Assembly: GCA_023231475.1 (NCBI GenBank)
Contig: JALJEE010000349.1
Location: 124,001-180,854, forward strand
Source: Seison nebaliae
Lineage: Eukaryota
Direction of reading: 5' to 3'
Length of the DNA stretch: 56,854 bases
Of this stretch, positions 1,500-48,309 are shown piece by piece. Every line of letters starts with the position of its first letter. Within the stretch, counting starts at the first letter, position 1. The notes under the pieces were generated by a model. The model worked only from the letters and a program-made list of their open reading frames with translations. It did no database searches and was not told the origin of the DNA. Both the position numbers and the translations under genes were made by a program.

Positions 1500-2760
1500 A
1501 TGGAAAAAAAGGTTGATGATGAACTGCTTTATGATAGGCAGATCCGTCTTTGGGGAGCAACAGCACAAGAACAGTTTATAATTTATTATTTATTTATTAT
1601 ATAAATTTATTGGATTAGTTTGAGATCATCATCAATATTAGTCGTAGGTTTCTCCAACAGTATTGTGGAGTTTATGAAGAATATGGTTTTAAGTGGAGTT
1701 CGTCGAATTACATTGATTTGGCAAGAGGAAAAAGTTATATTTTATTTAGAGTTGATCTCTCATTTCATTGAAAGATTCAGATAAAAAGTGAAAGATATTT
1801 CTTTTCGTCTAGTCATCGAAATGAAAGTGAATTAAAGAAGGCACTTTTGGAATCGATGAAACGATTAAATAATAAAGTATTAGTTAATGTCCTTAATGAA
1901 AATGGAGATGATATCGATCAACGAAATGGATTTTTAAGTAAAACTCACAATATTCTATTATTAAACGAGAAGAGACGTTCCTCCATCTCATATTGGGAAG
2001 AGAAATTCCATGAGAGAACCAATTCGTTTATTGCTCTCATTTATTTCCTTGAATATCAAGAGCATTTTATTATGAACATACTACAAAAGACAACTACCTT
2101 CAAAATTATTCCAAACGATATCCAATCAAAACCAATCGATATATGTCAATTAGACGGTGATTCCGATACAGATTGTGTGGAAATGTCAATCGATGAAAAT
2201 GAAATCATTCAAATGCCAATATCATTGAAACGGAAAATAACTACGTTACCAGGCGAATCATCTGATCAAATGCATAGTTGTAAGAAACGTTTGAAAATTG
2301 ACCAAATTATTTTCAAATCGAACGAAGCCAATTTTCACGAAATTTTCAAGAAGAAGAAACTTGACAAATTTCAACGTCAAACTCTCAAATCTCTTTCGAT
2401 CTGTTTCCTCCTCGTGAAATATCTGATCGAAACAAATGAAGAAATTTTGAGAATGAACGAACATTTCTCAATTAAACAATTCCAGACATTCGCCTCCCAA
2501 ACACAAATTACGAGAAAGATGACAGAAAATGTCACTTCTCTCCACAGTTTAATGACAAACGAATCATATCCTCATTTAGCAGCTGTATCAGGAGGCATTT
2601 TATCTACAGAAATTACTAACGTTTATTTCTTCTTCTTTTTTCTATTCCAACTAATTCATATTGATAGATAATTCAGTTGAATAATAAAGAACTCATCGAG
2701 AACAATTGGCTCGTTTATGATGGTGAGAAGCGACGAGCAGTCAAATTGTCTATGCAATAG
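1500..2760 (+). CDS. SAE1: SUMO-activating enzyme subunit 1 (AOS1/SAE1)-like E1 subunit, divergent; 4 exons
   Basis: Motifs are LYDRQIRLWGATAQ, LRSSSILVVG...KNMVLSGV and C-terminal AAVSGGILSTEI...NNWLVYDG. Introns are 1574-1618, 1734-1774 (or 1780) and 2621-2667. Confidence 0.8.
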
Positions 2761-3629
2761 CCGTCAACATTGATAACAAAATTTCATTTATTTTTTTATA
2801 CTTTTATTAGAAATTTCATAAAGTTTTTCATGTCATCTCTCAGTCAGTTTTTCATAATATTTTGTAGAAAGTGGTAAAATATTAGAGAGAGAATCAAGAT
2901 AATCATTCAGTTTCCATCAATTTCCAATAGGAATCTTTTGAAGAATTTCATATTTCCTTCCATCATTTCTGTTCAATATTTTCTTTTAACGACGAAATAA
3001 TGTTCATCGTTTTTCATTTCCGTTGATTGGAGATTCCGATTTCCACTCTCAATTATATTGTAATTTTTTCTTTCATAATTATTCATCATCGATCGTTGTG
3101 ATGTAGAATGTTTTTCTGTTTCTTTTGGATTATATTCGATATGATAAGTCTGTTTCAATTTGAACCGTCATATTGAAACTATAAAAATTTATGAGATCTA
3201 AACGGTACTTGATCAGTGATTGTTAAGTCATTCCATTTTCATTTGACATTTTGTGAGATAATTGTAGTAGAGAGATGTCTGATGAATAAAGGATTGAGAG
3301 AGAGACAGAGAGAGAGAAATGGTCTTGAAGGTAGTTGAATGTTTGATAATGTAATTTTATAAATTTTTACATGACTTTATAGTTTCCTACTAACTTTCTT
3401 AATAAGAGTAATAATCAGATAAGATATTGAGATATGTATATGACATGACGTCCATTGAGAAAGGAGGAGAGTGAATGATAATCTTCGATCGGAATAATTT
3501 CTAAAGAAAGAAATTTTATTAGAATTTCATCGAACGATTACTTCAAATCACACAGAAGTAGAATGATAAAGAAAATTTTATTAACGATTCAATTCTTCCA
3601 AAATTCAAAAAAATGAACCAGAAATTTTG

Positions 3630-4769
3630 TTATTTCTCTGCCTCGTCCTCCACACTTAATCGACATTCATCTTCTGTTACATTTCGTACGAATATAGAAT
3701 TTTTATTAATGTATTCAGAGGAGATTGGACTTGTCACATTATTTACATCTTCACACAACGCGCTACATGCCACAGCCAATAGAGAATCATCGGCTGAAAA
3801 GTCTAAGGAAACGATGGATTTGGGATATCTATCAAACACGAACATTCAAATAAAATATAGAAATAAAATAAAATGAAACTTGTGAAATTGACATAAACGT
3901 TTCTTGTGAATTGGATCCCACATGTTGACGAAGTTGTCGGAACCACCAGTAGCGAATGTTCCGAATCGTTTGTGAAATGAAATGGCTGAAACAGGACAAA
4001 TGATTTCATTATCACCATCTTTCTTCCGATGACATTTGAATGCATATCTTCGTTTAAATGGCGATTCAGATTTCTCGAATTTTTCTCCTCGATGAGTATT
4101 GCCGAAGAAGTCAACGGAGACACGTCCTTCAATCGAACTCACCACAAATCCACATTGTCTCAAATGATTCATATTTGGCATAAATCTCACACATCTCGTT
4201 TGATATTTCATGAGAGTATCTCGCACATATAAAGCCGTTTCAGGCGAACGAACATCATAAATACAAAGTTGTCTATCATTCGTCGCAATGATGGCATATG
4301 TGGACGAGACGTCCATCGAATAAACTGGTTTGGAGATGTTGAGATTGAAAGCAGCAGTCGCTATTCTTTCATCCCATACCTTCACTATCCCATCCCATCC
4401 GCCACTCCATATCACATTACCCATCGCCGGATCATCTATGGCACGAATACAACGAATCGCATTCGAATGTGAACCGATGACCACTTCCTTCGAATGTTGA
4501 AGATCCACTCGTTTAATATATCGATCCAATCCACCACTAATCGCATGTTTCTTACTCGTAAAATCACAACATAATACTGGTCCATTGTGCATATATTCAG
4601 CTAATAATCGATTATTGATAACATCGTATAATCGAACAGAACGATCCCACGACGAACATAACAATTTGCCATCATTCCAATGACGATTAAAACGGATCTC
4701 TGATATGGCGTCATCGGGAGGATCATATAATTTCACTTCCACTTCTCCTATTACATCCTTTCCCGGCAT
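3630..4769 (-). CDS. BUB3: Mitotic checkpoint WD40 protein BUB3; 2 exons
   Basis: Contains KYQTRC, SSIEGRV, YAFKCHR and FATGGSD...KKRLCQFH(K)YPKSI. One intron at 3829-3879. Confidence 0.95.
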
Positions 4770-5875
4770 TCTTTTTATAGTTCTATTACTCTTCTATCTA
4801 TAGACGTCGTATATAATCGTTTTCATTATTATTCTTTCATCTTTCAGCTTTTCATTTCAACTTTCTTCTTCTTTTCTACATTCAAACCTATCTGACAATC
4901 GATTTTTGAGATGTCTCGTTAAAAGAATGAAATGGAAGAGCTTCATTCTCCCACATCAATTGGTTTCTTTATAAATTTTGAATTAATTATTAATTTAAGA
5001 ATAATTTCCTAATATCGATTTGTTGGAATTGATTGATAAAATGAACGTGACTAATTGGGAATCGGATAAGGAGAGGAGATGTGAATGCATCGTCATGAAT
5101 TAATTTGAATAGTTAAATTATTGAAGAAAAGTTGAGAGAGTTCTCTTCTTCTTCGTCTTCTTCTTCTTATCAAATATATTCAACATTCTTGTTTACATTC
5201 GAATAATTCTGAACAAGAGATTGAGGGACAAGAAATGAATAGAAATTAGTCGACGAGAATACATATCAATATGGAAGGAAGGAAGATATATCGAGAAGGA
5301 AGAAATGGCTGATTAATACGATTGATCTTCTCTTGTCTTATCAATTGTTAGTTCTCCTCCATTATTGATATTGTCATTGATATCTCTTCAATATTCTTCG
5401 ATCATTCCACTTCACGCAATCATCTCTCTCTCTCCCTCCAATTTTTCCAAATGGGAATGAAGAAAAACTTTCAAATTAACAATTCTCGTCCTTCAGAACT
5501 GATACTTCCAAATCATCTCGTCATTACGAGGCAATGTATTGATATAAATTTGTCGATTAAACTTATCCGTATTTGTATGTGTGTTTGGATGAGGGAAGTT
5601 CCATTGTTGTCATTCGAACCTTGAAACATTCGACAGGAGAAATAACATTATTAATTAGAGAGAGAACAAATATTTTGGATGACGATATTCTGTTCTGCCA
5701 CTTCTCCATTTTTGGTTTCATTACGAATAATTTCTCATCAAATCAGGAAGTTCTCCCGTATTCCTTCATTTTCTTCTTCTTCACATTCCAATCAATATTC
5801 TCTCATTCATTCATTCATTCATTCATTCATTCATCTCTCGTTCGAACTGATCTCATTCAGATCTTCTTCCCATTC

Positions 5876-46724: not shown

Positions 46725-46777
<53 letters not shown>

Positions 46778-46780
46778 GTG
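46725..46780. repeat. Compound (CA)n(TA)n microsatellite ending in CACGTG, in the RPS21/eIF3i spacer
   Basis: Directly visible. Confidence 0.9.
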
Positions 46781-46891
46781 TTCTCACTTGAATATAATTC
46801 CATTAAAATTCTCTTTCAATTGAACATCAAATAAAAATATTTATATTTTTTTTTCAAATTCAAATTTACCATCAAACAACAACAACAGAAG

Positions 46892-48309
46892 ATGGTTAGT
46901 AAAAATTTTGATAATATTCTAGTCGTGTTCCTCTTGTCCACGGTGATGGTGGAAAGGATGATTGATCTAACTGAAATTTCCATATTATTTTGAAGATCAA
47001 GAATTACATGGAGTAATTTTTGTTTGTTTTTTAGAAACCGTTGGAATTGTTCGGGCACGAACGTGCTATAACAAAAATTCGTTTTAATTATGAAGGAGAT
47101 CTCATATTCACTGCATCCAAAGGAGAGAAGGTATGTGTCTGGTATTCACATAATGGCGAACAATTGGGAACGTATAATAGCGATCGTGGAGCTGTTTTCT
47201 CATTCGACGTCGACTGTTAATTTTTCTTTTGTTTTCATCAATTTGAGATTGAAATTAAAAAAGATATGACAAAAAATCTGATATCTGTTCATGGGGAATA
47301 CGCGACGATTCTGTGGGATATCGAAACTGGTTAATCATTTGGGAAATGAGAAGAAAATTTTGAAAAAATATTTCAGGGAAACAATTAAGAACGGAAGATG
47401 AGGATGGATTAGTGAAATGTTGTGGTTTCTCATACAGTGGCAATGTGTATTTCTCTGCTGTTCAAGCGAATAAAGATGATGCAGCCTATGTGAAACTATT
47501 CGACATTCGACAACCACAACCAATTGGAGAAATGATCAATGAATTCGGTTCACCTTACAGTACCGGTACATTTACTCATCTTGATAGAACGTTCGCCATC
47601 GGATTAATGGATGGAACGATCGGTTCATTCGACGTCGGAGTTTCTTTTTTTTTATTCAATTCTATTCTCACATCATCTCATTCAATTTCGTTAGGAGAGG
47701 AAAGTGGTAAAATCGGTGAAAGATCATCGAAATGCTATTAGTGACATGCAATTGAATGATGTAGGATCACTCATGATCACTTCATCTCAAGACAATACAT
47801 GTAATGTTTAATTTAATTTAAATCGATTTCTATTTCTCTTATAACTCTATTTTCCAGTTATATTCTACAGAGAATTTGGAATTATTGAAATCATATGATG
47901 TTGGCTGTATGGTGAAATCGGCAAGTATCTCATCAAAATATCCTCATGTTTTCTCTTTTCTCTCTTCATTCATTCATTCATTAATTCATTCATCTTCTAT
48001 TTATCAATAGCTTGTTATTGGAACAGGACAAGAAGCCAGTCAAGTGACAACAGTCGGATCGAAAAAGAAATTTGACACGAAATTTTATCATCTCATTTAT
48101 AACGAAGAATTCGCTGTAGTGAGAGACCATTTCGGTCCAGTCAACTCTGTCAATTTTCATCCGGATGGATCAGGGTTCCATTTTTCCATATAGTTCGTTA
48201 AAATGATTAATTTCCATTTGAATTGGACAGATATGCTAGCGGTTCTGAAGACGGTTTAGTGAAACTACATAAATTCGACGAGGATTATATGGTGAAAGAT
48301 TGTGGATAA
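46892..48309 (+). CDS. EIF3I: Eukaryotic translation initiation factor 3 subunit I (WD40); 8 exons
   Basis: [71 protein letters not shown]. Introns are 46895-47034, 47216-47263, 47330-47376, 47640-47694, 47806-47857, 47948-48010 and 48175-48230. Confidence 0.93.

Follow-up and report, generated by a model that had tools for sequence, protein, structure and literature searches.

With which letters does an intron begin in the rotifer Seison nebaliae, and what in its splicing machinery would read them? Animals normally start introns with GTA or GTG, and a purine at intron position +3 is among the most constant features of animal donors (5′ splice sites). We analysed a single region of Seison DNA of 56,854 nucleotides (the 57-kb window; all coordinates are window positions), for which an original prediction had claimed that nearly all introns start with GTT and none with GTA. 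Seison, a member of the Seisonidea, lives as an epizoic rotifer in the sea; ~40% of metazoan BUSCO genes are missing from its genome of ~46 Mb (PMC8351084, PMC12256650). Sixteen gene models were rebuilt, each without internal stops, and 13 of them contain introns, 41 in number and predicted from sequence. All 41 are GT-AG; the donor is GTT in 40, GTC in one, and GTA or GTG in none, so the claimed bias holds. With relatives as a control, these 41 introns from one window support a real, lineage-specific shift of the Seison donor from GUR to GUU.

The first count had been 39 GTT donors, one GTC and one ambiguous site in 12 genes. The GTC donor has proved real, and the ambiguity (21819/21825) is settled as GTT at 21825. 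Six donors cited as examples are all present: GTTTAT at 1574, GTTTCA at 3879 (minus strand), GTTCCC at 6249, GTTGGA at 10886 (minus), GTTCAA at 46568 (minus) and GTTCCA at 48175. We divided the donors into 25 that are best fixed (class A) and 16 that are based on frame continuity or one deposited model (class B). Foreign homologues or a paralogue anchor 21 of the class-A donors (six in eIF3i, six in ABCB, three in RPS21, one in LHFPL and five in the myosin light chains), and four more are the sole in-frame GT, or the sole choice that does not delete 12–14 residues; behind the SAE1 and BUB3 donors of this class stand residues that we take to be conserved. GTT opens 24 of the 25 class-A introns. 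T follows GT at a frequency of 0.38 window-wide and in 25 of 49 cases within introns, and the chance of 24 in 25 is p = 1.4e-9 at 0.38 and p = 7.7e-7 at 0.5. Thirteen unrelated genes, on both strands, agree on GTT. GTA itself is depleted, at 19% of the GT-N triplets in the window and 155 occurrences in coding sequence against 237 expected, probably through avoidance of TpA.

Tests that were blind to +3 recover the same donors. In eIF3i and ABCB, hidden Markov models (HMMs) built only from non-Seison homologues gave the modelled intron the top score in 13 of 13 cases against all in-frame GT/GC..AG alternatives, with the narrowest margins at 46895 (2.4 bits) and 10886 (5.2 bits); the range of this test excluded an alternative eIF3i start ATG and the alternative GTG donor of the first intron at 46949. 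Six non-Seison eIF3i proteins, by spliced alignment, each yielded the identical six internal introns. With single ABCB queries, five of the six Seison introns were found by all four queries and the intron at 10886, the weakest of the six ABCB class-A donors, by one only. Threading without assumed ends left one GT..AG solution per junction in both genes, as expected of the U2-type GT-AG class, and joins collinear with homologues restore the conserved reading frame. The deposited protein SNEBB_006766 (eIF3i, named by NCBI as hypothetical) threads exactly through the window, as does SNEBB_006756, which matches an ABCB exon at 100%. Exons 2–4 of RPS21 correspond to residues 18–38, 39–62 and 63 onward of solved eS21 chains, with no gap or overlap. 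In the SAE1-like gene, 1574 is the sole in-frame GT donor, and at 1734 every alternative GT is also a GTT. Introns 14368 and 14270 of myosin regulatory light chain 1 are matched in position in the light chain 2 paralogue.

The single GTC donor, at 16219 in light chain 2, is considered real because the paralogous light chain has no intron there and its length matches that of the spliced product. The two tandem light chain genes differ by this intron, and a third paralogue elsewhere in the genome seems to carry extra letters at the same places. Two diverged contigs were also observed, each a weak hint only: one over the ABCB exon (depth 3.1, 32 differences in 178 nt) stops exactly at the +3 T of donor 12379, and another (depth 2) ends at +2 of the GTC donor and may not share its C. 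Among the class-B genes, a spliced protein, P0144, threads exactly through 21692..23021 and resolves the ambiguity mentioned above. It is probably the deposited gene model, and its five introns were kept in class B because a gene model is not independent of training. The product of this gene has 354 residues, no Pfam match, and no close relative but itself among 1.8 billion representatives. The DNA is sound: five sequencing runs from two studies contain the window, and three compared at 95% show zero differences, so the window is not an assembly artefact. Three sequencing runs, including one guessed to be RNA, have DNA-like cover and no intron joints, which is no evidence either way on splicing.

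Relatives provide the control for composition. A Rotaria ABCB query retrieved 80 metagenome loci, of which we annotated six that were multi-exon, had 30–34% GC and had Rotaria as best match (L011, L012, L073, L080, L081 and L083, with L012 a near-duplicate of L011). Five loci were placed on a tree and form a clade with Rotaria sordida at a support of 1.0; they are called bdelloid-like here because the tree includes one named bdelloid only. The control consists of bdelloid-like ABCB genes. The aligner was blind to +3 and the script was the same as for Seison; 102 introns were found by all four queries, 69 after removal of duplicates. Their donors are GTA in 55, GTG in five, GTT in eight and GTC in one (a +3 purine in 60 of 69, ~80% GTA), with G at −1 in 28 of 69 and G at +5 in 36 of 69. 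These introns resemble those of Seison in median length (54 nt), T (45%) and G (10%), and their GTA majority means that short U-rich rotifer introns alone do not yield GTT. Seison and bdelloid-like introns differ at +3 by Fisher's test at p = 8e-21, a value that overstates independence because a single gene family is involved and orthologous positions are repeated.

In ABCB, bdelloid-like introns occur at the position and in the phase of four of the six Seison introns. At these positions, 14 distinct bdelloid-like introns comprise eight GTA, two GTG, three GTT and one GTC, whereas Seison has GTT at four of four, so old introns were converted in place, at least in ABCB. A recent burst of a mobile intron with GTT ends was considered as well and rejected, given the old positions of four of six introns in this one gene. 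Bdelloid-like ABCB genes have up to ~20 introns, against six in Seison, and weak donors such as GTAAAT and GTATGT. It is plausible that weak donors, together with the 12% GTT in relatives, were the starting point for the shift.

The anatomy of the Seison donor shows how far the change goes. As 40 of the 41 donors carry U at +3 and none carries a purine, these sites fall outside the canonical AG/GURAGU pattern (slashes mark exon–intron boundaries), defined by a +3 purine and/or G at −1. As first noted, the exonic −1 base is mostly not G (G in 8 of 41, about its coding frequency of 0.19). C at +3 is rare, in 1 of 41 against 24% expected (p = 2e-4). The original description of +4 to +6 as degenerate was too strong, since a weak AGT signal persists: A occupies +4 in 18 of 41 donors (p = 0.03), G occupies +5 in 11 of 41 against a background of 7.3% (p = 1.3e-4), T is avoided at +5 (6 of 41), and at +6 T is at background and G is absent (0 of 41). 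Because G is enriched at +5 and absent at +6, the normal register survives. GTTAGT is the top hexamer (7 of 41 against 0.4 expected, p = 2e-7) among more than 20 distinct ones, and it starts all three introns longer than 100 nt and 4 of the 38 below that length (p = 0.003 in a post hoc Fisher test). Intron lengths are 39–70 nt in 38 of 41 and 110, 129 and 140 nt in the rest (median 51 nt), and the introns are G-poor. At acceptor position −3, the 25 class-A introns have T in 12, C in nine, A in four and G in none. Five branch-like motifs were tested in the Seison introns, and none occurs above shuffled sequence.

Sites of the canonical type also exist in Seison and, in our models, appear to go ignored: 11 strong donors of this type lie within modelled coding exons, two of which are listed in Table 1. 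Against synonymous shuffles, coding exons contain GTTAG 5 times where 11.9 are expected (P = 0.014) and GTRAG 27 times where 19.9 are expected. A matrix built from bdelloid-like donors ranks 20 of the 41 Seison donors below a neighbouring GT (122 competitors). Thus a bias beyond composition, relatives with 80% GTA and unused canonical-type donors together support a rewiring of donor recognition, which the original prediction had proposed and which stands at the level of the lineage; the splicing machinery of Seison has likely been changed to read a different intron start.

The precedent is Entamoeba, in which GUUUGN donors open 96.9–98.5% of introns and have co-evolved with a U1 of ACAAAC (10.1101/2022.06.08.495308). 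The likeness to Seison lies in major-class GT-AG introns with U at +3 nearly throughout; however, Entamoeba is intron-poor and keeps a strict GUUUGU(U) with U at +4, whereas Seison is an animal with 41 introns in 16 modelled genes, no GTTTGT among 41 donors, loose positions +4 to +6 and GTTAGT as its best word, and the U1 change reported in Entamoeba is only predicted in Seison. With the canonical metazoan donor (AG/GURAGU, in two classes), Seison shares GT..AG ends, mostly YAG acceptors, residual A at +4 and G at +5, and intron positions common to rotifers, yet its donors belong to neither class, lacking +3 purines and mostly also G at −1. In human, canonical U1 can read donors with a +3 pyrimidine through shifted or bulged registers, but these concern ~2% of donors and require a consensus displaced by a single base (G at +6), while in Seison the change is near-universal and G at +6 is absent (PMC4856993). 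Fritillaria borealis, likewise an animal, also deviates across its genome from the splice signals that are usual; there, the terminal dinucleotides changed, intron ends vary and U1 has kept its 5′ end, in contrast to the strict GT-AG and single changed internal position of Seison (PMC13326754). No published description of a GTT donor in Seison or another animal was found, the search lying outside subscription journals and the supplements of PMC8351084 and of preprints. The accessible parts of PMC10125929, PMC12690905 and PMC10599564 likewise contain none, those of PMC12256650 do not mention splicing, and those of PMC8351084 mention Seison introns only with regard to gene compactness.

In the standard register, +3 faces nucleotide 6 of U1 small nuclear RNA (snRNA), as the core sequences in 10.1101/2022.06.08.495308 indicate. 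We tentatively favour, a shade short of calling it probable, a change of this nucleotide to A as the cause of the shift. A U1 with the 5′ end 5'-AUACUAAC would pair its A6 with U at +3 and be mismatched against A or G there, turning a purine-only rule into its mirror image, a U rule, with GUUAGU as the perfect match. Weak ancestral donors, U-rich introns and the depletion of TpA would have helped old introns to drift, or be selected, to GTT. In the U6 step that follows, U at +3 would face G44 as a tolerated wobble. The introns are short and poor in G, which probably makes up for some of the information that the donor lacks. What remains of a GTTAGT consensus is compatible with a U1 variant without being proof of one. 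Mean pairing of Seison donors with the U1 5′ end is 5.2 pairs for canonical U1 and 6.2 with A6, and that of bdelloid-like donors is 6.6 with canonical U1. The window gave no Rfam match at the gathering score, and so neither U1 nor U6 (by E-value, only microsatellite-like miRNA matches), and a U1-like pattern in viral contigs occurred at nine loci, none of them U1 by Rfam. The branch-point consensus is UACUAAC, which is contained in the predicted U1 5′ end, and that end would be complementary to the branch-recognition sequence of U2, a possible cost of the change.

Several points weigh against this U1-driven account or the data beneath it. The gain in pairing with A6 follows by construction from U at +3, and canonical U1 reaches the same mean (5.2 pairs) whether its register is normal or shifted by +1. 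A canonical U1 has been retained in most lineages that have unusual donors (yeasts, Giardia, Trichomonas, Thecamonas and Mamiellales; 10.1101/2022.06.08.495308), as well as in the animal Fritillaria borealis (PMC13326754), and it has been argued that the decision does not fall at U1 (PMC11732430). One near-invariant position amid loose neighbours suggests a later checkpoint rather than additive U1 pairing. Of the three long introns that start with GTTAGT, two belong to class B, and some class-B sites have in-frame options other than GTT (46949 GTG, 43455 GTA, 7124 GTC on the minus strand, 22231 GTA, 22740 GTA and 21819 GTG). The depletion of GTTAG in exons is weak, because 11 motifs were tried, AG/GTR falls slightly short as well (13 against 20.3, P = 0.048) and GTA is depleted. 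A matrix trained on Seison donors by leave-one-out still misranks 10 of 41 against the same 122 competitors.

An alternative that we regard as less likely is that the U6 step dictates U at +3, which would pair with U6 position 44 (as a wobble with G or Watson–Crick with A); U1 would be canonical, weakly used or lost, and the donor would be held by U at +3 after the loss of the exonic −1 G and most G at +5. Position +3 faces G44 of U6, with which A and G interact only weakly (PMC11732430), and in yeast +3 faces U6 G50, where G50A adds a pair with A3U (PMC3632134). The yeast change A3C makes this helix overly stable, so that the second step is blocked (PMC11331412), which would account for the rare C; since the yeast data explain this rarity either way, it was dropped as a discriminator between U1 A6 and U6 G44. 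The residual A at +4 and G at +5 fit U6 as well as U1. On the other hand, other animals have an unchanged U6 and purines at +3, so U6 would need a further change to exclude them. SNRNP27K, ZMAT2, MFAP1, PRPF6 and PRPF31 are scored complete in Seison in the published BUSCO table (supplement of PMC12256650), so that loss of SNRNP27K, one of the first suspects, is not the cause; among the BUSCO rows listed there, METTL16, LUC7 and U1C have none.

Less probable still, in our view, is a reading in which U1 and U6 are both canonical and the U is recognised by proteins: a diverged U1C, LUC7, Prp28, Prp8 or a TIA-1-type factor, possibly with a +1 shifted or bulged register that brings U at +3 to U1 A7. 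A yeast prp28 allele improves A3U, A3G, G5A and G5U donors (PMC3632134), some human donors are read in shifted or bulged registers (PMC4856993), and Seison proteins are very diverged, with SNRNP40 scored missing, although 'missing' in BUSCO may only mean diverged (supplement of PMC12256650). In the same table, SNRNP40 is missing from one bdelloid as well. A shifted register would like the A at −1 (19 of 41), A at +4 (18 of 41) and U at +7 (25 of 41) of Seison donors, but these registers predict G at +6, which never occurs, and G is enriched at +5 instead; neither A at +5 (p = 0.2) nor U at +7 (p = 0.07) is significant. No U-rich 5′ zone was found in the introns (U 0.50 in the 5′ part against 0.48 in the 3′ part), and relaxed proofreading would account for tolerance of U, not for exclusion of A and G. 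That there is no rewiring at all, and that AT-rich composition, TpA depletion, annotation bias or a regional quirk suffices, is very improbable: the GTA shortage, the single window, the sequence-based models and the 16 class-B donors speak for it, but a neutral T expectation of 0.38–0.51 stands against the 24 of 25 seen, foreign homologues recover the same donors blind to +3, the same script finds 80% GTA in bdelloid-like loci of similar composition, and unrelated genes on both strands agree.

U12-type donors have the motif RTATCCTT, and ZMAT5 is presumably U11/U12-20K. U12-type introns were rejected as an explanation, with no A at +3 among the 41 donors and ZMAT5 scored missing in Seison (supplement of PMC12256650). 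The same table scores ZMAT5 missing in both acanthocephalans as well, a hint that the clade may have lost its minor spliceosome.

Table 1. Genes, introns (donor to acceptor) and unused donors in the Seison nebaliae window
Feature	Position	Strand	Introns	Donors and remarks
FtsH-type protease N-terminus	1-695	-		runs off the window
SAE1-like gene	1500..2760	+	1574-1618, 1734-1780, 2621-2667	all GTT
BUB3/Rae1-family WD40 gene	3630..4769	-	3879-3829	GTT
LHFPL gene	5891..6534	+	6249-6298	GTT; start not fixed; exact join against LHFPL4/5
Ankyrin-repeat gene	6696..8262	-	7082-7037	GTT, class B; in-frame GTC/GTG alternatives
ABCB transporter (SNEBB_006756)	9278..13346	-	12600-12552, 12379-12333, 10886-10831, 10038-9988, 9777-9739, 9591-9482	all GTT
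Myosin regulatory light chain 1	14107..14838	-	14829-14701, 14368-14329, 14270-14218	all GTT
Myosin regulatory light chain 2	15724..16429	-	16420-16377, 16219-16173, 15991-15929, 15870-15826	GTT, GTC, GTT, GTT
ELAPOR-like gene	17884..21342	+	21244-21300	possible intron, GTTAGT, class B; frame could end without it
Gene of no known family	21692..23021	+	21825-21871, 22246-22296, 22326-22390, 22746-22799, 22934-22981	all GTT
Unused canonical-type donor TCG/GTAAGT	22217..22225	+		in coding exon, 26 nt upstream of modelled AAA/GTTGAT at 22246
Cytochrome P450 gene	23164..25175	+	24279-24336, 24534-24579	GTT
MsrA	25165-25701	-		intronless
Immunoglobulin-domain gene	42049..43789	+	42187-42237, 42590-42659, 43503-43550	GTT, class B; start not fixed; GTA alternative 43455
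480-residue open reading frame	44235-45677	-		intronless; no Pfam match
RPS21	46150..46618	-	46568-46519, 46454-46396, 46323-46281, 46221-46169	all GTT; first three homology-fixed
eIF3i (SNEBB_006766)	46892..48309	+	46895-47034, 47216-47263, 47330-47376, 47640-47694, 47806-47857, 47948-48010, 48175-48230	all GTT
Unused canonical-type donor AAG/GTATGT	47128..47136	+		inside eIF3i exon collinear with human protein
SNF5/SMARCB1	48574-49881	+		intronless

Two names in Table 1 are our assumptions: the SAE1-like gene, whose long exon has no Pfam match, is what we take it to be from a motif, and the BUB3 label of the gene at 3630..4769 is presumed in the same way, its top PDB matches being Rae1. Between 25800 and 41900, upstream of the immunoglobulin-domain gene, ~16 kb of this gene-dense window hold no recognised coding sequence. 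The ten genes from ABCB to eIF3i fit the locus numbers SNEBB_006756 to 006766, and the deposited annotation is therefore probably geneless in this interval as well.

We judge it evenly balanced whether Seison is the first animal known with a genome-wide GUR-to-GUU rewrite by a compensatory snRNA change (at U1 nucleotide 6 or U6 position 44), in which ancestral introns were converted and GUAAGU would no longer be read. An intron-rich animal in which U has replaced the +3 purine of old introns amounts to a natural experiment on how cis sites in their thousands can change together with a single trans reader. Seison also bears on an open question, namely which of U1 and U6 determines the donor consensus. 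In practical terms, donors of the Seison lineage will tend to be misplaced by gene finders whose training came from other animals.

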